From: a virus | Strand: one strand, 5' to 3' | UHGV virus genome: UHGV-0094181 | DNA length: 16,269 nt | Shown here: piece after piece, positions 1-14,997 of the stretch | Layout: each line of letters starts with the position of its first letter | Numbering within the stretch: position 1 is the first letter of the stretch | Position numbers and translations under genes: made by a program | The notes under the pieces: generated by a model | Databases searched by the model: none | Told to the model about the DNA's origin: nothing | The model's input: the letters and a program-made list of their open reading frames with translations, nothing else

Positions 1-110
1 AAATTATCCTTATTATTTATACTAAGTTGGCATTATAAAAAAGCATTGCTTATCAATTTGTTGCAACGAACAGGTCACTATCAGTCAAAATAAAATCATT
101 ATTTGATTTC
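1..110. other. attL-type attachment site: lambda-like core/overlap (TTTATACTAA, about 16-25) followed by P' arm with IHF H'-like site (TATCAATTTGTTG, about 49-61) and three Int arm-type sites (AGGTCACTAT / CAGTCAAAAT / AAATCATTAT, 72-103)
   Basis: Sequence from about position 16 onward matches my recollection of the lambda attP core and P' arm; the 12-15 nt left of the overlap (AAATTATCCTTATTA) matches neither the lambda P arm nor canonical attB. Confidence 0.8.
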
Positions 111-1169
111 AATTTTGTCCCACTCCCTGCCTCTGTCATCACGATACTGTGATGCCATGGTGTCCGACTTATGCCCGAGAAGATGTTGAGCAAACTTATC
201 GCTTATCTGCTTCTCATAGAGTCTTGCAGACAAACTGCGCAACTCGTGAAAGGTAGGCGGATCCCCTTCGAAGGAAAGACCTGATGCTTTTCGTGCGCGC
301 ATAAAATACCTTGATACTGTGCCGGATGAAAGCGGTTCACGACGAGTAGATGCAATTATGGTTTCTCCGCCAAGAATCTCTTTGCATTTATCAAGTGTTT
401 CCTTCATTGATATCCCGAGAGCATCAACATGCAATGTTGTAGGTATGGCAATTTTTACGCCCGTTTTGCTTTGCTCGACATAAAGATATCCATCTACGAT
501 ATCAGACCACTTCATTTCGCATAAATCACCAACTCGCTGCCCGGTAACAACAGCCAGTTCCATTGCAAGTCTGAGCCAACATGGTGATGATTCTGCTGCT
601 TGATAAATTTTCAGGTATTCGTCAGCCGTAAGCCTTGATCTCCTTACCTCTGATTTTGCTGCGCGAGTGGCAGCGACCGGGTTTGTTGTTATATGGCCTT
701 CAGCTATTGCCTCTCGGAATGCATCGCTCAGTGTTGATCTGATTAACTTGGCTGATGCCGCCTTGCCCTCGTCTATGTATCCATTGAGCATTGCCGCAAT
801 TTCTTTTGTGGTGATGTCTTCAAGTGGAGCATCAGGCAGCCCCCTCCTTATTGCTTTAATTTTGCTCATGTAATTTATGAGTGTCTTCTGCTTGATTCCT
901 CTGCTGGCGAGGATTTTTTCGTAGCGATCAAGCCATGAATGTAACGTAACAGAATTATCACTGTTGATTCTCGCTGTCAGAGGCTTGTGTTTGTGTCCTG
1001 AAAATAACTCAATGTTTGCCTGTATTGCTTCAGTAATTGCTATCCTCCTGTCTCTGCCTAATCCAAACTCTTTACCCGTCCTTGGGTCCCTGTAGCAGTA
1101 ATATCCATTGTTTCTTATATAAAGGTTAGGGGGTAAATCCCGGCGCTCATGACTTCGCCTTCTTCCCAT
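99..1169 (-). CDS. int: Lambda-type integrase (tyrosine recombinase), 356 aa
   Basis: Translation MGRRRSHERRDLPPNLYIRNNGYYCYRDPRTGKEF... matches lambda Int as I recall it; sits next to att site; start overlaps xis 3' end as in lambda. Confidence 0.97.
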   Translation of the reverse strand: MGRRRSHERRDLPPNLYIRNNGYYCYRDPRTGKEFGLGRDRRIAITEAIQANIELFSGHKHKPLTARINSDNSVTLHSWLDRYEKILASRGIKQKTLINYMSKIKAIRRGLPDAPLEDITTKEIAAMLNGYIDEGKAASAKLIRSTLSDAFREAIAEGHITTNPVAATRAAKSEVRRSRLTADEYLKIYQAAESSPCWLRLAMELAVVTGQRVGDLCEMKWSDIVDGYLYVEQSKTGVKIAIPTTLHVDALGISMKETLDKCKEILGGETIIASTRREPLSSGTVSRYFMRARKASGLSFEGDPPTFHELRSLSARLYEKQISDKFAQHLLGHKSDTMASQYRDDRGREWDKIEIK

Positions 1170-1365
1170 TTCTGATCCTCTTCAAAAGGCTACCTGTTAC
1201 TGGTCGATTTAAGTCAACCTTTACCGCTGATTCGTGGAACAGATACTCTCTTCCATCCTTAACCGGAGGAGGGAATATCCTGCACTCGCGTACCCATCGA
1301 CGAACTGTTTCAAGGCTTCTTGGGCGTCGCTGGCGTGCGTTCCACTCCTGAAGTGTCAAGTACAT
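1147..1365 (-). CDS. xis: Excisionase, 72 aa
   Basis: Translation MYLTLQEWNARQRRPRSLETVRRWVRECRIFPPPVKDGREYLFHESAVKVDLNRP... matches lambda Xis; overlaps int start. Confidence 0.95.
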   Translation of the reverse strand: MYLTLQEWNARQRRPRSLETVRRWVRECRIFPPPVKDGREYLFHESAVKVDLNRPVTGSLLKRIRNGKKAKS

Positions 1366-1377
1366 CGCAAAGTCTCC

Positions 1378-1391
1378 GCAATTACACGCAA
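1378..1391 (-). promoter_or_regulatory. pI-like CII-dependent promoter element (TTGC-N6-TTGC on minus strand) inside xis 5' region
   Basis: Minus-strand TTGCGTGTAATTGC in the position of the lambda pI CII box. Confidence 0.55.
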
Positions 1392-1412
1392 GAAAAAACC
1401 GCCATCAGGCGG
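1391..1412 (-). terminator. Hairpin CCGCC-TGAT-GGCGG followed by T6CTT on minus strand (intrinsic terminator-like) at the orf55-like stop
   Basis: 5-bp GC stem, 4-nt loop containing the stop codon, then TTTTTTCTT on the transcribed strand. Confidence 0.5.
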
Positions 1413-1572
1413 CTTGGTGTTCTTTCAGTTCTTCAAATCGAATATTGGTTACGTCTGCATGTGCTATCTGCTCCCATATCATCCAGTGGTCATAGCAGTC
1501 GTTGAAGTCCTCTGCTTCGATAACCCTGTTGAATGGTTCTCCATTCCATTCACCTGTGACTCGAAAGTGCAT
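1405..1572 (-). CDS. 55-aa protein (MHFRVTGEWNGEPFNRVIEAEDFNDCYDHWMIWEQIAHADVTNIRFEELKEHQAA), resembles lambda orf55-type small protein upstream of xis
   Basis: Below ORF-track size cutoff; found by manual translation; ATG preceded by GGAG at about 8 nt; position matches the small ORF upstream of xis in lambda (recollection, not verified). Confidence 0.55.
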   Translation of the reverse strand: MHFRVTGEWNGEPFNRVIEAEDFNDCYDHWMIWEQIAHADVTNIRFEELKEHQAA

Positions 1573-1585
1573 TTATCATCTCCAT

Positions 1586-1610
1586 AAAACAAAACTCGCC
1601 GTAGCGAGTT
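1586..1610 (-). terminator. Hairpin AACTCGC-TACG-GCGAGTT followed by TTGTTTTAT on minus strand (terminator/attenuator-like) just upstream of the orf55-like gene
   Basis: 7-bp stem, 4-nt loop, U-rich tail on transcribed strand. Confidence 0.4.
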
Positions 1611-1679
1611 CAGATAAAAGAAATCCCCGCGAGTGCGAGGATTGTTATTCACCTTTGACGGCAAGTTGCAGGTTAGCCA

Positions 1680-1940
1680 TTACCGCACCTCCAGTCTCCA
1701 TACCGCCTGACCAATCCGGCTGGCATAGGTATCTTTGGATACTGCTCCGTCTTTAGCCAGCTCCATAAGAATTTTGCGCAAATCTGCCGAACGCCATTCC
1801 TCATCAGGAAATTCCTTCTCCATTGCCAACCGCAGATTCCAGGTTGCTATCGTGAATGGATATTCCCCGCCGAGAGCTTTCTCTTGCAGGGCAGAACGGG
1901 AACGCATCACCTGCAAAACCTTCTCTTTTACATCCATCAT
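1680..1940 (-). CDS. Hypothetical protein, 86 aa (start at ATGATG with AGGAGG RBS; ORF-track ORF extends further upstream)
   Basis: AGGAGGCAAA-ATG; start overlaps stop of upstream gene (ATGA); function not recognised. Confidence 0.6.
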   Translation of the reverse strand: MMDVKEKVLQVMRSRSALQEKALGGEYPFTIATWNLRLAMEKEFPDEEWRSADLRKILMELAKDGAVSKDTYASRIGQAVWRLEVR

Positions 1941-2494
1941 TTTGCCTCCTGCGGCGGTTCCGGTAGCGGCATCCAGTGTGATGGTATCCACGACGCACCT
2001 GGAATTATCCACCCATCATTAGCGTCAGGATGCCCCGGGATGTAAGTCGCCCATTTCATTCGCCAGTCACCTTTCCTGTCAAACTCCCTGGCAACAAGAA
2101 CGGCTGTTTTGGTATCCGGCATTCGCTCACTACAGCTTATCCAACCATCCGGAGTTACCGGCGCTGGCTGGGCGGTATAAAGCGGTGTTATATCTGCCCG
2201 AAAATTACATGCTTTATGCAGCCGCACCCACCGTTCGACTTCTGCTTTGTCAGAATACATACCAGTGAACGTGTTATATTCACGGTCAATTTGCGTGAAT
2301 GTTACCTTCCACGCCACCGGCTCTGCTTCCAGCGATGCCAGTGCAATCCGTGCCAGTTCCAGTTCCCGTTCAACCATCTCAAGAACAACTTTGCAGTCCT
2401 CACCTTCTTTGCTAGCACGTCCTTTCAAGTCTTCCAGATAACTAACGCTTTCGCGTGCATGGGAGATTAACTGTTCTTTGGTAAAAGTTGTCAT
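1937..2494 (-). CDS. Ead/Ea22-like N-terminal module fused to DUF551-like C-terminal domain, about 185 aa
   Basis: C-terminal DGWISCSERMPD...W..HWMPLPEPP pattern typical of DUF551 as I recall it; N-terminal ARIALASLEAEPVAW / TPLY..PAPV module shared with ORF 3083-3475; internal ATG with AAGGA RBS chosen over TTG start at 2584. Confidence 0.7.
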   Translation of the reverse strand: MTTFTKEQLISHARESVSYLEDLKGRASKEGEDCKVVLEMVERELELARIALASLEAEPVAWKVTFTQIDREYNTFTGMYSDKAEVERWVRLHKACNFRADITPLYTAQPAPVTPDGWISCSERMPDTKTAVLVAREFDRKGDWRMKWATYIPGHPDANDGWIIPGASWIPSHWMPLPEPPQEAK

Positions 2495-2495
2495 A

Positions 2496-2714
2496 TCAGC
2501 TTTCCTTGTACGGGTTAATTTTATTGTGTAGTGCGTTGAACGACGCCCATACCACGTCGTTATACAATTCAATAACTGGCTCAATTATTTTCCCGATTGC
2601 CCAGACAAAAATTAGCGGGGATATCGGTATCATCAACACGATAAACAGAATGAGAAACATGATTTCTATTGTCCTGCTTCTTCGCGGATATTCTTTTCTG
2701 AATAATGTAGGCAC
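2496..2714 (-). CDS. Small predicted membrane protein, 72 aa (GTG start), single hydrophobic helix IMFLILFIVLMIPISPLIFVWAIG
   Basis: AAGGAGA RBS 5 nt upstream of GTG; stop abuts next gene start; hydrophobic stretch visible in translation. Confidence 0.5.
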   Translation of the reverse strand: MPTLFRKEYPRRSRTIEIMFLILFIVLMIPISPLIFVWAIGKIIEPVIELYNDVVWASFNALHNKINPYKES

Positions 2715-2715
2715 A

Positions 2716-2904
2716 TCACTCTCCTTTAGTGCGCAAGTGGTTTTTCCAGCGGTTTTGCGCCGCGCTGGGTTTGTTAAGAAAACACATCACGATATCAGCC
2801 GTGTTTGTGAACAATCCCATTCTGCGGTTACTGAGTTTTAACCATTGCTGGACGCCGCGCGCGTTTCTACAGGTCAAAAGAATTTTTGCTTTACGGTTTT
2901 TCAT
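2716..2904 (-). CDS. Hypothetical small protein, 62 aa
   Basis: AGGAGA RBS about 8 nt upstream of ATG; start overlaps upstream stop (ATGA). Confidence 0.5.
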   Translation of the reverse strand: MKNRKAKILLTCRNARGVQQWLKLSNRRMGLFTNTADIVMCFLNKPSAAQNRWKNHLRTKGE

Positions 2905-3083
2905 CGTTTTGTTCTCCTGCGTTTGCGTTTCTTTGCTGCTCGTCGTGCCGCTGCAATACCGGTATGGCGGCGCTTTGGTGCCGGGATGATGTTGTCAGCC
3001 ATCAGGACATGTGGCTTTGCAATTAGCGCAGGAGCCCAAAAACGAGTCGGGTACGTTAACAAGCCGAAAAATGCCACACGCAT
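2901..3083 (-). CDS. Hypothetical small protein, 60 aa, hydrophobic N-terminus and very basic C-terminus (RRAAKKRKRRRTKR)
   Basis: GGAGGT RBS 5 nt upstream of ATG; TAATG overlap with upstream gene; composition unusual so coding status uncertain. Confidence 0.4.
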   Translation of the reverse strand: MRVAFFGLLTYPTRFWAPALIAKPHVLMADNIIPAPKRRHTGIAAARRAAKKRKRRRTKR

Positions 3084-3475
3084 TACTCACCTCCCTTACC
3101 CTGAAGCATGGCGGCGCGATAGGCGTTCCAGCCGACAGCTTTTCCGTGTTCAAACGCGCTGTCAAAGTCATCATCAATTTCCATCGCAGCGGGCACAGAT
3201 ACCGGCGCTGGCGGGGAGGCGTAAAGCGGCGTTACTTCTCGCAGCGGGTCGGCATAAGCATTGCCACTATCGAAGCTGACGTTGTTTTTTGCCCCGCCTC
3301 CTGACAGCAACCACGCCACCGGCTCCGCTTCGAGCGATGCCAGTGCGATACGCGCATTATTAATCAGGAGGCTATCAGCAGGAGATAAAACAACATGAGC
3401 GTTTCCCTCCGCATCAATTTCAGAATTCGTAATTTTTCTGAACAGCTTTGCCAGTTCTCTGGTAATAGTGCTCAT
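3083..3475 (-). CDS. Ead/Ea22-like protein, 130 aa
   Basis: Shares ARIALASLEAEPVAW and TPLYASPPAPV motifs with the N-terminal part of ORF 1937-2494; family assignment from memory of Ead/Ea22-like phage proteins. Confidence 0.65.
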   Translation of the reverse strand: MSTITRELAKLFRKITNSEIDAEGNAHVVLSPADSLLINNARIALASLEAEPVAWLLSGGGAKNNVSFDSGNAYADPLREVTPLYASPPAPVSVPAAMEIDDDFDSAFEHGKAVGWNAYRAAMLQGKGGE

Positions 3476-3744
3476 GGGCGAATCTCCGTCCTGCCACCAA
3501 GTAAGCGGATTGCCACTCGTTCCCGGAAGGTAAGCGGTCGATGGTGTCCGCGGGCATTAACAATTTCAGGCTTTCCATTAGGCGGATAATTGACCCTGAC
3601 CGATTGACCATCTAGCGCGTGAGAAGCCTCGAGTAGTGCTGACTTTAAGTGCGCAGGGCACTCTTTCTGCACCCACTCGCCGTCTGAAATGACACCTGCA
3701 ATCCCCTGAAGCATGCTGGCTAAATTGCTGAGATAATTTTTCAC
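3472..3744 (-). CDS. Hypothetical protein, about 90 aa (probable start at second GTG)
   Basis: AAAGGAGA RBS; ATGA-type overlap with downstream gene start at 3475; not recognised. Confidence 0.5.
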   Translation of the reverse strand: MKNYLSNLASMLQGIAGVISDGEWVQKECPAHLKSALLEASHALDGQSVRVNYPPNGKPEIVNARGHHRPLTFRERVAIRLLGGRTEIRP

Positions 3745-3746
3745 AT

Positions 3747-4187
3747 TCACTCTCCTTTACCGGTGCCATAGGCAGATAAGCACTCTTCAAATCCAGCCTG
3801 ATTATCCGTTTGACCAAAACTGAAGCCATGCTGAAGACCATGACGAAATGCGCTATCTTGCAATTTATCTGCGGTTTCGAGCTTCGCCTCCAGTTCTGCT
3901 ATGCGCTCTTCATAGCGAGCACCAACCGATACGGCTTTATGGAAGGCTTCGCACCACTTTGACGATTGCGCCTGCATCTTCTCCAGCTCATCCAGCAGCG
4001 CCAGCACGGTAGTGGGGTTTGCTGCGGAGTTCAGCGCGTTCAAGGCAGTGATATCTGCATCAAGCTGAGTTCCTTCTGCCAGTGAGATATCGAAAATGTC
4101 ATCAGGCGGCATAACACTAAGGCGCTCATGTGCGCCAACTGCTGCCGCTGCGATTTCACGCAGCGCCTGTTTGTCGATGTTTCTCAT
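3747..4187 (-). CDS. Ead/Ea22-like protein, 146 aa; N-terminal 68 aa nearly identical to ORF 4184-4711
   Basis: AGGAGG RBS 7 nt upstream; MRNIDKQALREIAAAAVGAHERL... N-terminus duplicated; start overlaps upstream stop (ATGA). Confidence 0.65.
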   Translation of the reverse strand: MRNIDKQALREIAAAAVGAHERLSVMPPDDIFDISLAEGTQLDADITALNALNSAANPTTVLALLDELEKMQAQSSKWCEAFHKAVSVGARYEERIAELEAKLETADKLQDSAFRHGLQHGFSFGQTDNQAGFEECLSAYGTGKGE

Positions 4188-4194
4188 TGGGCGG
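3999..4194. repeat. Direct repeat copy 1 (196 bp perfect match to 4523-4718)
   Basis: Aligned by eye: identical from cgccagcacgg... to ...cattgggcgg; one mismatch at 3998 just outside. Confidence 0.85.
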
Positions 4195-4711
4195 CCTCCT
4201 GGCGGTCTATGCGTTCAATTTCAGCCAGAATAAGTGCGCCAGCTTTTACTAAGTCGCGGCGTGCTCCTGATTGCTTCCACCAGTCAGGAGACCACGGCCA
4301 ATGTGCTGGAGTGGAGAAACCTTGGTTGTGCGCATGAATTGCGTAACAAGCCGCTGCATCTGCTAATTCGCTATTTTGATATGCGTTGTCATGTTCAGGA
4401 GTCCATCCTTCAACCGACTGTTGCCGCTGGCGTTCTGCTACCACATCAAGAATTGCGGGATTGAATGCGCCCCCCTCCAGTTCTGCTATGCGCTTCTCTG
4501 CGGCTTCCAACTCATCCAGCATCGCCAGCACGGTAGTGGGGTTTGCTGCGGAGTTCAGCGCGTTCAAGGCAGTGATATCTGCATCAAGCTGAGTTCCTTC
4601 TGCCAGTGAGATATCGAAAATGTCATCAGGCGGCATAACACTAAGGCGCTCATGTGCGCCAACTGCTGCCGCTGCGATTTCACGCAGCGCCTGTTTGTCG
4701 ATGTTTCTCAT
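4184..4711 (-). CDS. Ead/Ea22-like protein with DUF550-like C-terminal domain, 175 aa
   Basis: C-terminal EGWTPEHDNAYQ...HWPWSPDWWKQSGARRDLVKAGALILAEIERIDR resembles DUF550 as I recall it; N-terminus duplicated in 3747-4187. Confidence 0.7.
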   Translation of the reverse strand: MRNIDKQALREIAAAAVGAHERLSVMPPDDIFDISLAEGTQLDADITALNALNSAANPTTVLAMLDELEAAEKRIAELEGGAFNPAILDVVAERQRQQSVEGWTPEHDNAYQNSELADAAACYAIHAHNQGFSTPAHWPWSPDWWKQSGARRDLVKAGALILAEIERIDRQEAAQ

Positions 4712-4718
4712 TGGGCGG
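4523..4718. repeat. Direct repeat copy 2 (196 bp perfect match to 3999-4194)
   Basis: See copy 1; offset 524 bp. Confidence 0.85.
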
Positions 4719-4980
4719 TTCCTTCGTAACCGATGGCTTCTGCAATTTCAGCAAGTGTCTCTGCACTTTCACCCACTGGCTCATTCATCCAGTCGAAGGA
4801 AACAAGCTTACCGCCTTCGATAACGCCGATGTTGAAATCATCACTACCTTGTGTTTTCAGACCATGCTTGATTGCCTTATCGCGCTTATCGAAGTCAACG
4901 CCGTCTGTCGTGTATTCAACTCCATGGCCTTTCTCGTTGCACCACCAGTACTGCTGAATAACGATGTATGATTTGCTCAT
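4708..4980 (-). CDS. Hypothetical protein, 90 aa
   Basis: AAAGGAG RBS; ATGA overlaps at both ends (4977-4980 and 4708-4711); not recognised. Confidence 0.6.
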   Translation of the reverse strand: MSKSYIVIQQYWWCNEKGHGVEYTTDGVDFDKRDKAIKHGLKTQGSDDFNIGVIEGGKLVSFDWMNEPVGESAETLAEIAEAIGYEGTAQ

Positions 4981-5630
4981 GACTGCACTCCTTTGCGAAT
5001 CTGCTCCCTGAACAAGCGGGCTGAGACGATGATGTCTCTGATGCGTACTGATTTTTCGTCGAACTGCTCACCACCGTTTTTAATATGCGCATCCAGTTCT
5101 GCACTGTGATGCCGAATGAAAGCGTTGAGGTCATGCGCCCGCACTTCAGCCAGGAAATCGTCGGTGGCTGGGGTTGACTCTTGTGGTGACACAGCAACAC
5201 GAATGGCATCAAGTGCCGGGTCTGTATCTACTGTAGGAACCTTGATATAACCCAGTTGCACACCGTTCATGATGAACGTTCGACGGTCCTCACATGTCGC
5301 CTTCAGTCCCGCATTCTCAGCAGCCAGCGTATTGCGTTCATGAGCAAGTTTTTCTGTTTCTTCTTGCGCCAGTTTGTTGACCTGTTCAGCTACTTCCATG
5401 AGTTCGTTAATCACATTTATCTTTGCAGCCATCTTCGCGCATTTAGCCTCAAGGTTATCAATCGTGATTCCAGCAGAACGACACTCCCGCAACGCCGTTT
5501 CCAGTTTTGATTCAAGTTCACCGAACTTACGGACAAGATATTCAGCGTTTGTTTCGTTAACCTTTAAATCTCGTGGGATGCATTTACCTTTCAGAAAACC
5601 ATCCATCTCAATTAGTGACATTTGTTTCAT
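4977..5630 (-). CDS. Hypothetical coiled-coil protein, about 217 aa (start at ATG 5630; ORF-track GTG at 5648 less likely)
   Basis: ATG overlaps stop of upstream 54-aa ORF (ATGA); N-terminal heptad-like charged region. Confidence 0.6.
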
Positions 5631-5791
5631 TTTTTCCCACTCCGCCACATCGCATTCAGATGTTTGTTTTGATTTACTGACGGAAAAGAATTTCTCTTAA
5701 GCAATTCCTCTCTCGATGGCATTGGCTTTACGCGTTGGCGAATAATCATTTCTGCCGGAAGAATGCCGGGATTGTATGCAAGTCCTCTCAT
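5627..5791 (-). CDS. Unlisted small ORF, 54 aa ([54 protein letters not shown])
   Basis: Below ORF-track cutoff; GAGGA RBS 7-8 nt upstream of ATG; stop overlaps next gene start (ATGA). Confidence 0.4.
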
Positions 5792-5807
5792 GGTAAATTC
5801 CTCTTTG

Positions 5808-6122
5808 TTAATTTATTCGTATGCCTGCTCTTTCTTCATCGAGTTTTTTTAGCTTGTATCGCATAGCTCTTACTGAATAAATTGAGCGGCAGGTTGCAAT
5901 TGCTATTTCTTCTGCGGAGAACTTACCGAAAAGTGATACTTCGGCTCTTGTCCATCGTCTTCCACGAAGTCGGTTAACAATGTCAGCGCCAATCCTTGTT
6001 GCTTTTGCCATTACTGCTTTTTCAGTCCTTTCCAGTTTTTCAGCGATAACTTCAACTGGCATTGTCGCCGCTACTTCGCGCAAGAAATCGACTTCCCATT
6101 TCTCCCATGGAGTCTTTTTCAT
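5808..6122 (-). CDS. Hypothetical protein, 104 aa, with two internally repeated W-x2-E...helix-turn-helix-like segments (possible DNA-binding protein)
   Basis: Internal repeat visible in translation ([40 protein letters not shown] / [35 protein letters not shown]); weak RBS, 11 nt after upstream stop. Confidence 0.55.
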
Positions 6123-6133
6123 AGGCGATACCG

Positions 6134-6616
6134 TTATTTGATAAGAAGTGAAGGTTTCCCAACTTTGAGTTGAGCGCCGGGGATATTTATTCCTGCTTTT
6201 AGTTGGTGTTTGATTGCCAGTTTGTCGGCTTTAATTGTCGTTTCAAACTCAACGTATTCAGGAGGAAGGGCGCTTGAGTCGATGATTTCTACAATTTCTG
6301 ACGGTTTGCGGATTGTTACCTGGTGAATACCTGCTCGAATCTTTTTCTTGCCAACCATTTCAAGCGATGACGCTATATATGATTTGATGCTGTCAATCTT
6401 ATTTTGAATTACTGCGGCTCGCTCATTTAGTGACTTTGCCTCTTCCTTGAGGCGTTCAGCATAACCAGATTCATTTTTAATAATGGCAAGAAGTTGCTCT
6501 ATTTTATCGGTAAATTCTCCTTCCATGCCTTCTATTGTGTCAGCAATCATCTCTGGTTCTAAATCTGAATCCATCAATTTTGCGTATTCATTGGCTATTT
6601 CATATAGTTTGCTCAC
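6134..6616 (-). CDS. Siphovirus Gp157-like protein, about 160 aa (GTG start after GGAGG)
   Basis: Size, composition and position next to recT fit the Gp157 family as I recall it; no ATG in frame, GGAGG-N6-GTG. Confidence 0.6.
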   Translation of the reverse strand: MSKLYEIANEYAKLMDSDLEPEMIADTIEGMEGEFTDKIEQLLAIIKNESGYAERLKEEAKSLNERAAVIQNKIDSIKSYIASSLEMVGKKKIRAGIHQVTIRKPSEIVEIIDSSALPPEYVEFETTIKADKLAIKHQLKAGINIPGAQLKVGKPSLLIK

Positions 6617-7514
6617 TGGCAACCTCCAGTTTAGCTTTGCATTCTATGTAAATGGCTTGTACGTTCTGCTGCAATTTCATTCCAGATGTCAGGCGATATG
6701 CTTCTGCAAAATATCGCTTCAAATCATCCATCTTTTCTGCCTGAGCCATTTCATCACAAAGAAGTTGTGCTTTTTCCATTATTTCCTGCTGGCGTTTCCG
6801 TTCATCTTCGCGGATATCTTCCTCTGATTTGTGCGGCATAACTGGTTCAGTCCACACACCTTCTTCTTCGTTTAGTACGTGAATAGCACTATCAAGACGT
6901 GATGCCTTAGGCCAATACTTGCTTGCACGCTTTACGACCGTCTTTCGCGCCATCTCATTCCAGTGATTTACCCATGGTCCTTTATCGCTGAATGCTGCCT
7001 TGCTTGTTTTCCTTACAGCCTCAATTTCAGCCAGACTCATCTCTTCCGTTAGATAATCACCTGCTGGCGTCTTAACTGTGCAGTAAACGCCAACGATATC
7101 ACCACGATCACCGAAGGCGTTGTATTTATGGGTTGGTGCTTTATCAAGCCCGTTTGACTCATAGGTATCGTTAGCATGAACAAGTTTTGCCTGACCCCAT
7201 GAGATAACACCAGACTCCATTGCAATATGGAGCAATCCCATATAGCTGATATCAAGGCAAACCATGCCGTCGCGCGGAACCAGATAAGCCAGTTTGCTGG
7301 CCGGGTTTAAGGTGATGCCGATCGCCGCAACGTTGATGATAGCGTTCTGTGCGCTGGTCGGATTTGCCAGTGCTGTTTTAGCCAGGTAATCATTTTTCTG
7401 GAAATACTGAATTGCAAACTGGCTTTCCTTAGCCCATGTGACTGATTGGTCTGTAACCGCCCCAACAAAGAGCGGCTCTTGCTGTTTAACGAACTCAACA
7501 ATGCTCATGCTCAT
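6600..7514 (-). CDS. recT: RecT-family single-strand annealing protein, 304 aa
   Basis: Conserved core ...ITLNPASKLAYLVPRDGMVCLDISYMGLLHIA... typical of RecT/Redbeta-class SSAPs; follows gam. Confidence 0.88.
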   Translation of the reverse strand: MSMSIVEFVKQQEPLFVGAVTDQSVTWAKESQFAIQYFQKNDYLAKTALANPTSAQNAIINVAAIGITLNPASKLAYLVPRDGMVCLDISYMGLLHIAMESGVISWGQAKLVHANDTYESNGLDKAPTHKYNAFGDRGDIVGVYCTVKTPAGDYLTEEMSLAEIEAVRKTSKAAFSDKGPWVNHWNEMARKTVVKRASKYWPKASRLDSAIHVLNEEEGVWTEPVMPHKSEEDIREDERKRQQEIMEKAQLLCDEMAQAEKMDDLKRYFAEAYRLTSGMKLQQNVQAIYIECKAKLEVASEQTI

Positions 7515-7516
7515 CG

Positions 7517-7813
7517 TTACTGTCCCTCATCAATATCTGTTTGGTGGCGAGCAATTGTCTCTGCCATGTAGCGAATAAATTCAGCGGCCCTTTCCTGAAA
7601 CTCGACGTCATCATCGAATGCTTTGGAAATGGCATTCTTGCTGGCCCCGCGACGTTGCAACTCGTCAACGCACAACGATTCCAGTTTGCTCTGTGGCAAT
7701 CCTTTTTCGAGGTCATCAGCCAGTTCAGATTCACGCTCTTCTCTGGCTATTTGCTGATAATGGCGCGTCCAGTTCTGCGCCTCGATACGGTCTTGAACGA
7801 GATATGCAGCCAT
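7517..7813 (-). CDS. gam: Gam host-nuclease (RecBCD) inhibitor, short GamS-like form, 98 aa
   Basis: [41 protein letters not shown]...[11 protein letters not shown]... closely matches lambda GamS from memory; AGGAG RBS 7 nt upstream; a longer ATG-initiated ORF to 7942 exists without RBS. Confidence 0.85.
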
Positions 7814-7892
7814 AATAGGCTCCTGAAATTTGGTTGTGCGCTGCCCGTCTGCGATAGCCGGACGAGTAGGGGTAATGGGTGTTTGGTGTGGT

Positions 7893-8135
7893 TTACTTGC
7901 CGAGTGCCTTGTCGATGGCGGAACGAGCCATATCAAACTCATCTGTTTGACGGTCTGCTACTCTAACTACAGCCTGCAGAGCTTCCAGTAATTCAGGCGC
8001 TGCAGTAATGAGAGTCTTGTTTTCCTTGCTCGTCATTTCAAGTGGATATCCCTTTCCAAAGACTATGTGATGCTTGTTTCCCAAGCCCTCTTCATCCCAA
8101 AACCACGGACCGGGAGTTCCTTTAAATTCGCTCAT
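7893..8135 (-). CDS. Hypothetical protein, 80 aa ([11 protein letters not shown]...[10 protein letters not shown]), paralog of ORF 8802-9080
   Basis: AGGAAG RBS 8 nt upstream; shared N-terminal EFKGTPG.W and central AAP(E/D)LLEALQ motifs with the 92-aa ORF. Confidence 0.6.
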
Positions 8136-9869: not shown

Positions 9870-10202
9870 TCACCCCTCATACAGTAGCTTACTGCCTAAT
9901 TTCATTTTCTGGCGACCAACACAAGTCACCCCCATTTCACTGCGTGGCTTGCTGTACCATGTGCGCTGATTCTTGTGCTCAATACGTTGCAGGTTGCTTT
10001 CAATCTGTTCGTGGTATTCAGCCAGCACCGTAAGGTCTATCGGATTCAGTGCGCTTTCTACTCGTGATTTCGGTTTGCGATTCAGCGATAGAATAGGGCG
10101 GTTAACTGGCTTTGCGCTTACCCCAACTAACAGGGGGTTTGCTGCTTTCCATTGAGCCTGTTTCTCTGCGCGACGTTCGCGGCGGCGTGTTTGTGCATCC
10201 AT
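9870..10202 (-). CDS. N: Antitermination protein N, 110 aa
   Basis: N-terminus MDAQTRRRERRAEKQAQWKAANPLLVGVSAKPVNRPILSL matches the lambda N arginine-rich motif and body; C-terminal 25 aa diverge; AGGAGA RBS. Confidence 0.95.
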   Translation of the reverse strand: MDAQTRRRERRAEKQAQWKAANPLLVGVSAKPVNRPILSLNRKPKSRVESALNPIDLTVLAEYHEQIESNLQRIEHKNQRTWYSKPRSEMGVTCVGRQKMKLGSKLLYEG

Positions 10203-10740: not shown

Positions 10741-12015
<1,275 letters not shown>

Positions 12016-12055: not shown

Positions 12056-12115
12056 ATCAAATTAAACCACACCTATGGTGTATGCATTTATTTGCATACA
12101 TTCAATCAATTGTTA
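12056..12115 (+). terminator. tR1-like region (Rho-dependent terminator zone with ATGCA-TTTATTT-TGCAT hairpin) between nutR and cII
   Basis: Position and sequence resemble lambda tR1 as I recall it; no strong intrinsic U-tract. Confidence 0.45.
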
Positions 12116-12134
12116 TCTAAGGAAATACTTACAT

Positions 12135-12428
12135 ATGGTTCGTGCAAACAAACGCAACGAGGCTCTACGAATCGAGAGTGCGTTGCTTAACAAAATCGCA
12201 ATGCTTGGAACTGAGAAGACAGCGGAAGCTGTGGGCGTTGATAAGTCGCAGATCAGCAGGTGGAAGAGGGATTGGATTCCAAAGTTCTCAATGCTGCTTG
12301 CTGTTCTTGAATGGGGCGTCGTCGACGACGATATGGCTCGATTGGCACGACAAGTTGCTTCGATTCTCACCAATAAAAAACGCCCGGCGGCAACCGAGCG
12401 TTCTGAACAAATCCAGATGGAATTTTAA
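12135..12428 (+). CDS. cII: CII transcriptional activator, 97 aa
   Basis: MVRANKRNEALRIESALLNKIAMLGTEKTAEAVGVDKSQISRWKRDWIPKFSMLLAVLEWGVVDDDMARLARQVASILTNKKRPAATERSEQIQMEF matches lambda CII; ORF-track ORF extends upstream spuriously. Confidence 0.95.
   Translation: MVRANKRNEALRIESALLNKIAMLGTEKTAEAVGVDKSQISRWKRDWIPKFSMLLAVLEWGVVDDDMARLARQVASILTNKKRPAATERSEQIQMEF
12144..12157 (-). promoter_or_regulatory. pRE-like CII box (TTGC-N6-TTGC on minus strand) within cII 5' coding region
   Basis: Minus-strand TTGCGTTTGTTTGC at the position of lambda pRE -35. Confidence 0.6.
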
Positions 12429-12449
12429 CTGCTTTCTATGGAGTTAATT

Positions 12450-13250
12450 ATGGCAAAAAAACCTACACCAGACCAGGTAAAAAAGATTCGTTCCGGCATT
12501 ACCAAGAAAATACGGTTTGAGGTTTTCAAGCGCGATGGCTTCAAATGCCAGTACTGTGGGAGTTCTGCGCCAGACGTCATCCTTCATGTCGACCATATCA
12601 ACCCAGTTAGCAAGGGTGGCGATAACGACATGATGAACCTTATTACTTCTTGCGATAGTTGTAATGGCGGGAAAAGCGACAAACTGCTCAGCGATAACTC
12701 AATAATGGAAAAGCAAAGGCAGCAACTCCAGGAACTTAATACCAAGCGAGAGCAACTGGAGATGATGATCAAGTGGCGAGATGGTCTTAAGAGCCTAAAA
12801 GACGATGTTGTTGATATTGTCGCTACCAAAATTGACGACTGCATTGCACCATTTACTGTTAATGACAATGGGCGAAAATCTATCAAGAGATGGCTTCGAA
12901 TATATAAGCTTGAAGAAATACTCGATGCGATTGAGATTGCCGCAGACAAAAAACTCACCCAAGAAATAACCAATGAGCTTACTGGTGAATTCTTTGAGTA
13001 CATCCCTCGCATAGCAGCGACAAAAAGAAAACCGCCAAAAGAACAAAGGATTCTATACATCAGAGGAATCCTTAAAAACCGCATATATATCAATCAAAAC
13101 CATGTAATGAGTTATCTCAAGGCATGGCTTTCATACGACTTAGATCTCGATGAACTTACTGAGTTTGCGAAAACAGTACCTAACTGGACAACGTTCAAGG
13201 AGTGGGTATCTGAACGCATTCGTGAAGCTCAGGAAGAACTCCCGTACTAA
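12450..13250 (+). CDS. HNH endonuclease, about 266 aa (N-terminal HNH nuclease motif, C-terminal domain of unknown function)
   Basis: CQYCG...HVDHINPVSKGGDNDMMNLITSCDSCNGGKSDK is a textbook HNH (C-x2-C, H-x-D-H, N, C-x2-C-N); GGAG RBS 6 nt before ATG at 12450. Confidence 0.85.
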   Translation: MAKKPTPDQVKKIRSGITKKIRFEVFKRDGFKCQYCGSSAPDVILHVDHINPVSKGGDNDMMNLITSCDSCNGGKSDKLLSDNSIMEKQRQQLQELNTKREQLEMMIKWRDGLKSLKDDVVDIVATKIDDCIAPFTVNDNGRKSIKRWLRIYKLEEILDAIEIAADKKLTQEITNELTGEFFEYIPRIAATKRKPPKEQRILYIRGILKNRIYINQNHVMSYLKAWLSYDLDLDELTEFAKTVPNWTTFKEWVSERIREAQEELPY

Positions 13251-13261
13251 AGGTGGACAAA

Positions 13262-14149
13262 ATGGCACGTTCAAGAAATATCAAACCAGGCTTTTTCACC
13301 AATGATGAATTAGCTGAGTGTTCTCCATATGCCCGTCTCCTTTTTGCCGGGTTATGGACTATTGCTGACAAAGAAGGGCGGCTGGATGATCGCCCAAAGA
13401 AAATTAAAGCAATGGTACTGCCTTTCGATGATGTGGACTGCAATGATCTGCTTCAGCAGCTTCACAGTCACAAATTCATCAACCGATATCAGGTAAATGG
13501 CGGCTCATATATCCAAATCAATAACTGGAAAAAGCACCAGAACCCTCACTGCAAAGAAGCAGCCAGTGAGATACCAGAACCAGTAGAGAACAATAACAGC
13601 ACCATGCAAGTACAGTGCAAGGACGATAAAGAGGAAGAGAAGGAGGATGCCGAATCACTGCAAGTCATTGAAAACAATGAAGCACCAGAAAAGCACCATG
13701 CAAGTACAGTGCAAGAACCAGTAGAGAACAGTTTAAATCCTGCTGATTCCCTTAACCTGATTCCTGATTCCCTTAACCTGATTCCTGATTCCCTTTCTAA
13801 CACCCAAGCCGCTGACGCGACTTGTGAAGGGGGTGGGGCTGATGTCCATAAAATTTCAAGTCGCTATGCATTCGAAGGAAATATCGTTCGGTTAAACCAC
13901 AAGGACTACGAAGCATGGAAGCGCCTGTATCCGAACATTGACCTGAATTACGAGCTGGAAAGGCTGGATATCGAATTTAGCCATGAGAAGCCAAAGAACT
14001 GGTTTATCACTGCCAGCCAGAAACTCAGCTACCAGAACAAGCAGGCGTTATCCAGACCGGTACGCAAGGTTGCTAATGGACTTAAGGCTGAAAACTTTGC
14101 CGCCAAAGATTACGGGCAAACTGAAATGCCTTCATGGGCGCAGGAGTGA
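13262..14149 (+). CDS. Putative replication initiator / replisome organizer, 295 aa (occupies the lambda O slot)
   Basis: N-terminus MARSRNIKPGFFTNDELAE...RLLFAGLW...EGRL resembles phage replication-protein N-terminal domains as I recall them; followed by DnaC-like loader; contains iteron-like DNA repeats; AGGTGG RBS. Confidence 0.7.
   Translation: MARSRNIKPGFFTNDELAECSPYARLLFAGLWTIADKEGRLDDRPKKIKAMVLPFDDVDCNDLLQQLHSHKFINRYQVNGGSYIQINNWKKHQNPHCKEAASEIPEPVENNNSTMQVQCKDDKEEEKEDAESLQVIENNEAPEKHHASTVQEPVENSLNPADSLNLIPDSLNLIPDSLSNTQAADATCEGGGADVHKISSRYAFEGNIVRLNHKDYEAWKRLYPNIDLNYELERLDIEFSHEKPKNWFITASQKLSYQNKQALSRPVRKVANGLKAENFAAKDYGQTEMPSWAQE
13577..13798 (+). repeat. Iteron-like direct repeats inside the initiator gene: 16-17 bp repeat (13577-13592, 13715-13730), 24 bp repeat (13598-13621, 13692-13715), and a tandem 21-bp CTGATTCCCTTAACCTGATTC array (13743-13798); candidate replication origin
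   Basis: Repeats identified by eye; the 24-bp repeat is translated in two different reading frames, so conservation is at the DNA level. Confidence 0.5.
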
Positions 14150-14151
14150 AC

Positions 14152-14997
14152 ATGACGCTGGATGAAAAGATCTCCCAACTGGAGAAAAAACTTGCAGAAT
14201 TGAGTTCTCCGCCAATTGCTATCGAGCATACAGCTGTAGAAATTGGCACTGGCATCTGTGAAAAACATGGTGAGTTTGAGCAGCGTAACCGTTACTCGAC
14301 TGGGCCAATTAAGTTTGCCTCAAGACCTAGCGAATGCCCGGAATGCATGAGAGATGCGCTTATTCGGCTACAGGCGGAGAAGATTAAAAGCGACGAGGAA
14401 TCACGTAAGCGCAATGTCGAGTTTCTGTTGAATAATCTTGATATTCCTGAACGATTCAAGGGTTGCACACTACAGAACTACGAGCCAGTCAACGACGATG
14501 CAAAGAGAGTGCTCAGGGTGTGTCAGGCATACGCCAGCAAATGGCCTGAGAGGTTACAGAAAGGCGGTGGGCTGGTTATGTGTGGAAAGCCTGGTACTGG
14601 AAAGAATCATCTTGCACTGGCTATCGCCCGGCACGCAATTACGGAACATCAAAGCTCAGCTATTTTCACAACGGCGCTGAAAATTGCCAGAGAATATAAA
14701 TCAACATGGTCGAAAAACTCCACCCGCACAGAGGATGAAGTGATCCGACAGTTCACTAAACCTGACCTGCTAATTATCGATGAGGTTGGTGTGCAGTTTG
14801 GAAGCGAGGCGGAAAAGATGATCATGTTCGAAATCATCAACACCCGCTACGAGCGCATGAAGCCAACAATCCTGATTAGCAACCAGAGCAAAGATGAACT
14901 GTCTGCATTCATTGGTGAGCGTGTTATTGACAGGATGAATGATGGCGGCGGATGCACCCTTGCGTTTACATGGGATAGTTACAGGAGCAGATCGTGA
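14152..14997 (+). CDS. DnaC/IstB-like AAA+ helicase loader, about 281 aa, with N-terminal Cys-rich segment
   Basis: Walker A GKPGTGKNH and Walker B LLIIDEVG; AGGAG RBS; occupies the lambda P slot. Confidence 0.85.
   Translation: MTLDEKISQLEKKLAELSSPPIAIEHTAVEIGTGICEKHGEFEQRNRYSTGPIKFASRPSECPECMRDALIRLQAEKIKSDEESRKRNVEFLLNNLDIPERFKGCTLQNYEPVNDDAKRVLRVCQAYASKWPERLQKGGGLVMCGKPGTGKNHLALAIARHAITEHQSSAIFTTALKIAREYKSTWSKNSTRTEDEVIRQFTKPDLLIIDEVGVQFGSEAEKMIMFEIINTRYERMKPTILISNQSKDELSAFIGERVIDRMNDGGGCTLAFTWDSYRSRS

Follow-up and report, generated by a model that had tools for sequence, protein, structure and literature searches.

The ea22 genes of lambda-like (lambdoid) phages have been described as mosaics, in which a common part made of a short N-terminal segment and a central coiled coil is joined to unrelated, 'portable' C-terminal domains (PMC10834534). 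The Ea22 protein is a tetramer whose C-terminal domain is decoupled from the N-terminal and coiled-coil scaffold by a flexible segment (PMC10834534), and a K/R-G-E tripeptide has been reported at the C-terminus of Ea22 proteins (PMC7093339). Here we analyse two adjacent genes of this Ead/Ea22 family, open reading frames ORF1 and ORF2, which share an exact 196-bp direct repeat in the virus genome UHGV-0094181, a DNA stretch of 16,269 nucleotides (the window). Ea22 of phage lambda and the variants V1-V3 of Shiga toxin (Stx) phages (PMC10834534, PMC7093339) belong to the same family and lie in the same position, between the recombination genes and xis. These two studies deal with one ea22 gene per phage and with mosaicism at the level of protein blocks, whereas the tandem paralogs, the DNA boxes and the variable N-terminal core of the window are features that they do not describe.

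The boundary-sequence model of lambdoid mosaicism is well established (Susskind & Botstein 1978; Clark et al. 2001; both as cited in PMC3233612). As far as they are outlined in PMC3233612 and PMC3945230, the boundary-sequence and relaxed recombination models place the joints at short conserved sequences at gene or domain boundaries, as is found here. De Paepe et al. 2014 (PMC3945230) describe a 100%-identical patch flanked by partly identical 'HR traces' (HR, homologous recombination), with a Rad52-like recombinase encoded nearby, and the window presents the same picture. Rad52-like phage recombinases recombine short and diverged homologies, and for those of the Red-beta type the shortest segment reported to support pairing is about 23-27 bp (PMC3945230). 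Unlike in these models, which involve two phages, the partners here appear to be two genes of one genome, as far as can be read from the sequence alone.

A further parallel is found in Salmonella phage P22 (GenBank L06296, repeat1/repeat2), in which the adjacent early-left genes eaF and eaD begin with the same boundary sequence, annotated by the depositors as a 26-bp direct repeat at the two gene starts. ORF1 of the window is the counterpart of P22 EaD, and ORF2 occupies the eaF slot. The two loci differ in that the P22 genes have 26 bp in common and encode proteins that are unrelated after MSNIDK, whereas the window genes have 196 bp in common and both belong to Ead/Ea22.

The repeat and the two genes that share it

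The two genes and the two copies of the repeat are as follows.

3747-4187, minus strand: ORF1, 146 amino acids (aa), an EaD-type Ead/Ea22 protein with a core1 N-terminus, a KMQAQ...RIAELE linker and a P22 EaD-like C-terminal part
4184-4711, minus strand: ORF2, 175 aa, an Ead/Ea22 protein with a core1 N-terminus, AAEKRIAELE and an all-helical C-terminal domain of ~95 aa (CTD2)
3999-4194, minus strand: repeat copy 1, exact 196 bp by sequence comparison, in the 5' part of ORF1
4523-4718, minus strand: repeat copy 2, exact 196 bp by sequence comparison, in the 5' part of ORF2

An earlier reading of the window from its letters alone (the sequence-only reading) had held that these two segments are identical, and in-register self-comparison gives an exact run of 196 bp, 3999-4194 = 4523-4718, at an offset of 524 bp. 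By the same comparison a repeat search extends the pair to 213 nt (3982-4194 and 4506-4718) with 2 mismatches in the additional 17 nt, and identity is at background on either side of these 213 bp in each 524-bp unit. An exact match of 196 bp cannot arise by chance in 16 kb, and none of 200 shuffles gave a match in a paired 20-mer test. Each copy of the repeat consists of 7 bp upstream of the ATG followed by codons 1-63.

Both genes lie on the minus strand with ORF2 as the upstream gene, its stop overlapping the ORF1 start (ATGA). Both proteins match the Pfam family Ead_Ea22 (PF13935, IPR025153), ORF1 with 70.0 bits and ORF2 with 66.3 bits against a cutoff of 27, and the 69 residues that they have in common reach 57.4 bits on their own. 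Codon 64, which is CTG (Leu) in one and ATG (Met) in the other, gives the sole residue change within residues 1-69. Codons 65-69 (LDELE) differ by one synonymous change, and the proteins are unrelated thereafter. The earlier description of two Ead/Ea22-like paralogs with the same N-termini, the same start context and unrelated C-terminal parts is thus borne out, and its count of 68 shared codons with one Leu/Met substitution was essentially right, residues 1-63 and 65-69 being the same. The C-terminal part of ORF1 is 69% identical to the C-terminus of P22 EaD.

Conserved boxes at the edges of the identical tract

Three short conserved sequences, boxes A, B and C, recur in the two genes, and within this family their conservation extends to synonymous sites.

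4155-4190, minus strand: box A at the ORF1 start (CCAATGAGAAACATCGACAAACAGGCGCTGCGTGAA), the putative 5' anchor of the exchanged tract
4679-4714, minus strand: box A at the ORF2 start
3982-4025, minus strand: box B of ORF1 (GCAGCAAACCCCACTACCGTGCTGGCGCTGCTGGATGAGCTGGA, encoding AANPTTVLALLDELE), inside which the exact repeat stops, at 3999
4506-4549, minus strand: box B of ORF2 (...GTGCTGGCGATGCTGGATGAGTTGGA); on its 3' side the tract ends at the first ORF2-specific bases (ATG, TTGGAA)
3887-3907, minus strand: box C in ORF1 (AGCGCATAGCAGAACTGGAGG, encoding RIAELE), an exact 21-nt repeat and putative second recombination joint
4474-4494, minus strand: box C in ORF2

Box A is a 36-nt sequence (CCAATGAGCAACATCGACAAACAGGCGCTGCGTGAA) that includes the Shine-Dalgarno sequence, the start codon and the first 11 codons, and the exact block of box B is a 24-nt sequence (ACCGTGCTGGCGCTGCTGGATGAG) that encodes part of AANPxTVLALLDELE. 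Between boxes A and B the members of the family carry a variable core of ~50-150 bp. The tract of identity runs from just upstream of box A, 7 bp before the ATG, to the inside of box B. Directly past its 3' edge ORF2 has TTGGAA, as does the gene CDS0030 of Escherichia phage Dewey. The 'AML' variant at the tract edge is also present in other ORF2-type proteins (P0008, P0009, P0028 and P0090), and it is therefore a feature of the recipient allele rather than a new mutation.

Box A is invariant, all synonymous sites included, in genes of four unrelated cores from different loci. A BLAST search with the 36 nt found it at the eaF/eaD junction, 100% identical, in P22 and many relatives, among them epsilon34, an Enterobacter phage and ES18 (97%). 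The window box A is identical to the P22 eaD start at 36/36 positions, the AGA variant of codon 2 aside, with a 26-bp copy at the eaF start. Because P22 EaF has the box and is yet unrelated to EaD beyond MSNIDK, the box belongs to the gene boundary and not to a protein family.

Fusions at box C are found in both senses. In one, the ORF1 N-terminus and linker are fused to the ORF2 C-terminal domain (P0003, P0025, P0035 and P0037). In the other, core1-AAEKRIAELE is fused to the C-terminal part of ORF1 (E. coli C 236-04A, L008, a 125-aa gene). Furthermore, CTD2 is paired with at least 10 N-terminal types among the 120 best ORF2 homologues. From these comparisons we identify boxes A, B and C as the putative recombination joints at which the modules of Ead/Ea22 genes are shuffled, in agreement with the published mosaic structure of ea22 (PMC10834534). 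The suggestion in the sequence-only reading of a shared N-terminal targeting module with exchangeable effector domains agrees broadly with the same study, although the N-terminus proved to be itself a mosaic of box, core and box and targeting would be a hypothetical role.

A related observation concerns P22 and lambda. The depositors of L06296 remark that positions 1884-1994 (eaD) are identical to lambda 30168-30278 (ea22) at 98/111 bp. This island runs from the end of box B (CTGCTGGATGAGCTGGA) through the coiled-coil segment in phages that are otherwise dissimilar, which is consistent with the region acting as a common recombination joint.

Origin of the repeat

Two further genes of the window bear on how the repeat arose.

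4708-4980, minus strand: 90-aa gene upstream of the pair, ending ...EGTAQ* on the ORF2 start; kept in Dewey, Louie, LR536431 and ET665
6600-7514, minus strand: phage RecT-family single-strand annealing protein, a candidate catalyst of the exchange

The closest sequenced phage, Dewey (PQ850600), carries both genes in unchanged order and with the same neighbours: the 90-aa gene, gene A, gene B and the same downstream genes. Its downstream gene of the pair, CDS0029, is 98% identical to ORF1. Its upstream gene, CDS0030, differs from ORF2 in carrying a different, ~85%-identical allele of CTD2 behind a wholly different N-terminal core, core2 (...AAEKATKGRWAVEFDDEIYSTDG...). Direct comparison of the two Dewey genes shows that their only common exact blocks are the 36 nt of box A and the 24 nt of box B, the latter at TVLALLDE. 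The ~130-150 bp between the boxes are unalignable in the Dewey pair, whereas the same interval, boxes included, is identical in the two window genes. Tandem Ead pairs with differing cores recur elsewhere: besides Dewey (core2 then core1) they are found in two metagenome contigs, with core1 and then another core, and in an E. coli isolate, with core1 and then a short core (L012/L013 and L014).

The unconverted pair in Dewey and the box-bounded tract in the window therefore argue for patch replacement between paralogs rather than for duplication of a 524-bp unit. The earlier claim of a recent duplication that created the two paralogs does not hold, as identity collapses outside the 213 bp and Dewey has separate neighbours with divergent cores. 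For the same reason a simple tandem duplication is rejected, the units being not homologous over their full length and showing background identity beyond the 213 bp. A tandem duplication of one ancestral Ead gene, with the C-terminal half of one copy replaced afterwards, would fit the head-to-tail layout and the identical 5' ends. This is highly improbable in our view, because the 328 bp that separate the repeat copies show no similarity to their counterpart in the other unit, each of the two gene types occurs independently elsewhere among phages, with a different core, and two events would be needed where one is enough.

We consider that the repeat is probably a real feature and the footprint of homologous exchange at conserved boxes between pre-existing adjacent Ead/Ea22 genes. 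The ancestral state would have been that of Dewey, with neighbouring genes whose cores between boxes A and B were unrelated. Pairing would have taken place at boxes A and B, probably by the phage RecT or the host RecA, and the core of ORF2 would have been replaced by that of ORF1, leaving 196 bp of perfect identity that end inside box B. The exact lengths of boxes A and B (36 and 24 nt) are at or above the pairing minimum of 23-27 bp, and the RecT gene lies 2 kb away, which makes RecT a candidate for this role. The repeat, the boxes, the unconverted and the single-copy relatives and the shuffling of modules are direct observations; which enzyme acted, in which direction and when, and what follows for the proteins, we infer from these comparisons.

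Within homologous exchange, gene conversion (patch replacement) inside this genome is the likeliest form, at about even odds in our estimate. It is the best reading among the options of the sequence-only reading, in view of the unconverted pair in Dewey and of codon 2, which is AGA (Arg) in both window copies and AGC (Ser) in every other fetched locus. An MRN start occurs in only 1 of 23 other core1 proteins. The presence of AGA in both copies and its rarity elsewhere therefore favour homogenisation within this genome.

The main rival to conversion within this genome is assembly between phages, and both are homologous exchange at the same boxes. Here crossovers between two lambdoid phages, either co-infecting or resident, one in the 90-aa gene or box A and one in the box A of the next gene, would have placed a core1-CTD2 gene that already existed as such (P0005/P0007 type, 175 aa with a QEAAQ tail) in front of a core1 EaD gene. 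The near invariance of core1 in the population would then be enough to explain why the cores are identical. It is true that another Ead gene follows existing core1-CTD2 genes of equal length and with the same tail (L012-L014), that core1 is 100% identical to that of the window in ~20 E. coli genomes, and that the ~85% identity between the C-terminal domains of ORF2 and its Dewey homologue makes the difference from Dewey exceed the core. However, such an assembly needs the rare AGA codon 2 (1 of 23 others) either in both parents or in both genes of one parent, and it needs exact identity over the 7 bp upstream of the ATG, which are variable at other junctions. We regard it as rather unlikely.

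Several observations weigh against conversion within this genome or against the repeat as a whole. The argument for homogenisation depends mainly on one rare nucleotide in both copies, and ORF2 could have arrived ready-made by exchange between phages, given that other E. coli isolates have core1 and CTD2 united in one gene (P0001, P0007, P0012 and P0014). Core1 is present in 56 of 5,426 complete E. coli genomes (59 matching records), and in about 20 of the 59 records, which come from unrelated genomes, it is 100% identical to the window over 146 bp. Since core1 is nearly invariant in the population, perfect identity is weak evidence of recency, and the earlier inference that it implies a recent event is weaker than was thought. 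More than one copy of core1 was found in only 2 of the 59 records, and the located copies sit in different prophages (a third copy, in ABWA45, is left out of this statement). A search for a core1 20-mer, a gap of ~500 nt and a second core1 20-mer gave 0 matches in IMG/VR, in GTDB representative genomes and in JGI metagenomes. The tandem with identical cores is found only in one human-gut short-read metagenome assembly.

The last point raises the question whether a short-read assembler joined two co-existing phage strains via their common boxes. Positions 1184-7711 of the window are 100% identical to a scaffold of 112,652 bp from a human-gut metagenome (ENA ERZ28577280, FENG15-1 scaffold_71), which is a short-read source, and records of the exact ORF1 and ORF2 proteins are confined to this scaffold and one other contig of 10-20 kb. 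An artefact would fit this sole source and the fact that there is no second occurrence in four collections. By our estimate the repeat is also longer than the typical reads of that era. On the other hand, the final k-mers of widely used assemblers exceed the length of the common boxes (24-43 nt), and the core1-CTD2 and CTD2-core1 junctions would therefore need real read support. Moreover, the core1-'AML'-CTD2 junction is independently present in P0008/P0009, the contig is long (112 kb) and continuous, and AGA in both copies is unexpected for a chimera of two strains. An artefact is thus very improbable, and exchange between adjacent Ead/Ea22 genes at the boxes is the origin that we prefer.

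Single-copy relatives and possible consequences

The sequence-only reading had also regarded the repeat as a substrate for deletion, which is plausible. Removal of one 524-bp unit in silico gives a product of 1177 bp that aligns end to end with E. coli ET665, with 0 gaps and 93% identity. Phage Louie and E. coli LR536431 each have one core1 Ead gene immediately following the 90-aa gene. In Louie its C-terminal part differs, and in LR536431 it has a 14-aa linker insertion; these two match the deletion product in two blocks only. Phage mEp213 has the same 146-aa EaD, preceded by a different Ead gene and not by the 90-aa gene. Single-copy forms with the predicted deletion junction thus occur naturally, and as judged by their sequences an ancestor and a deletion product are indistinguishable. 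A single crossover at the 196-bp repeat would delete the C-terminal domain of ORF2 and lead to the single-gene layout of these other phages.

At the protein level, ORF1 and ORF2 could co-assemble and show different C-terminal domains. Residues 1-69 are common to both and, as the Ea22 studies suggest, may be part of an oligomerising scaffold, and mixed ORF1/ORF2 oligomers could therefore form. We may speculate further that the Ead/Ea22 locus is a cassette-type diversification system, with boxes A, B and C as joints at the DNA level, perhaps favoured by RecT, and with tandem copies whose products co-assemble as mixed oligomers. Such a system is in our judgement a long shot. If it were true, a protein of host interaction or anti-immunity would have its variable N-terminal core, its linkers and its C-terminal domains rapidly recombined by lambdoid phages, and tandem copies with identical N-termini would form mixed oligomers with two different C-terminal domains. 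A 2026 preprint reports occasional fusions of EaE-related anti-OLD proteins to EaD/Ea22 and describes the region as a reservoir of fast-evolving anti-immunity genes (10.64898/2026.07.10.737580).

The feature itself is ordinary phage mosaicism, a new instance in a known gene family that reveals no new mechanism or function. Its value lies in being an unusually clear case resolved to the base, in which a converted pair, an unconverted relative, single-copy relatives and reciprocal fusions can all be identified. The joints map to boxes of 21-36 nt whose sequence is the same in E. coli phages and in Salmonella phage P22, which supports the boundary-sequence view of phage mosaicism for the early-left ea region.

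Gene ends and the C-terminal domain of ORF2

The two genes differ in their tails, since ORF1 has the C-terminal tripeptide reported for Ea22 (GKGE*) and ORF2, which ends in RQEAAQ*, does not. The K/R-G-E tail of ORF1 is encoded by AAAGGAGAG followed by TGAATG (3744-3761) and falls on the Shine-Dalgarno sequence and the start of the gene that follows. The QEAAQ* tail of ORF2 is encoded by CAGGAGGCCGCCCAATGA (4185-4201; CAGGAGG...CCAATGA), which is the ribosome-binding site and overlapping start of the Ead gene that follows. In every locus examined, the type of tail predicted the next gene. The tail motifs would thus be conserved because they overlap the ribosome-binding site of the next gene, and the '+GE' tail published for Ea22 proteins would for the most part be the ribosome-binding site of the gene downstream.

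One of the two C-terminal parts had been called DUF550-like from the sequence alone. The C-terminal domain of ORF2 gave no Pfam match even at E<=10, hhalign against a real DUF550 protein gave a probability of 0.2%, and there was no significant fold match. With neither profile nor fold similarity, assignment of this domain to the DUF550 / dATP-dGTP diphosphohydrolase family (PF04447) is rejected. The AlphaFold2 monomer model of ORF2 (pLDDT, the predicted local distance difference test score, 86) is all-helical, with a long helix at residues 58-82 followed by the helical C-terminal domain. This domain is found at the end of many PHROG families, which vary widely in length and none of which has a known function.

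The label 'HNH endonuclease' on the Dewey homologue is likewise unsupported by ORF2, which has the C-terminal domain in common with it and gave no HNH match in Pfam; the scan covered ORF2 and not the Dewey protein itself. In E. coli, the label 'hNH endonuclease' given by the Prokaryotic Genome Annotation Pipeline (PGAP) sits on the neighbouring gene in the EaE slot, which has a Cys/His-rich motif. Annotation pipelines thus mislabel these genes.

Genomic setting

The window comprises the left arm of a lambdoid prophage together with its immunity region. The Ead pair lies in the early-left 'ea' or exo-xis accessory region, with the recombination genes on one side and xis/int on the other, all in the same orientation. 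The other genes that mark the window are as follows.

99-1169, minus strand: integrase
1147-1365, minus strand: excisionase (xis)
1937-2584, minus strand: DUF551 gene
6134-7942, minus strand: Gp157/RecT/Gam
9870-10202, minus strand: N-like gene
11064-11696, minus strand: cI-like repressor
12075-12428, plus strand: cII
12438-13250, plus strand: HNH endonuclease gene, 270 aa (PF01844, E 1e-13)
14134-14997, plus strand: DnaC-like loader

With tblastn at E<1e-3 no homologues of P22 EaE and EaF were found in the window, and only parts of EaD and EaA were matched. Directly upstream of the 90-aa gene, the gene at 4977-5648 (minus strand) has a GTG start and 223 aa in the list of open reading frames, whereas Dewey, Louie and the scaffold call a later start, giving 217 aa. 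Ead-type proteins of LR536431 and mEp213 have its C-terminal ~60 aa in common with it, and in P0090 the ORF2 C-terminal domain is fused to its N-terminus.

The HNH gene is inserted between cII and a putative replication-initiator gene, an unusual position, and may be a homing-type insertion. The latter open reading frame (13253-14149, plus strand) lies just upstream of the DnaC-like loader and has no Pfam match. Inside it are an exact 21-bp tandem repeat (CTGATTCCCTTAACCTGATTC) of 2.5 copies at 13743-13795 and several imperfect direct repeats of 27-47 nt at 13560-14044, which look like origin iterons in a replication-initiator gene, as in lambda O.

Finally, direct repeats of 43-45 nt with 81-89% identity (2153-2353 versus 3197-3355) connect the DUF551 gene with a 130-aa open reading frame (3083-3475). 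The two have a 'ARIALASLEAEPVAW ... TPLY..PAPV' module in common and match different parts of P22 EaA, and in E. coli LR536431 the C-terminus of the 130-aa frame is fused to DUF551. They represent a second example of N-terminal modules that are common to adjacent ea genes.

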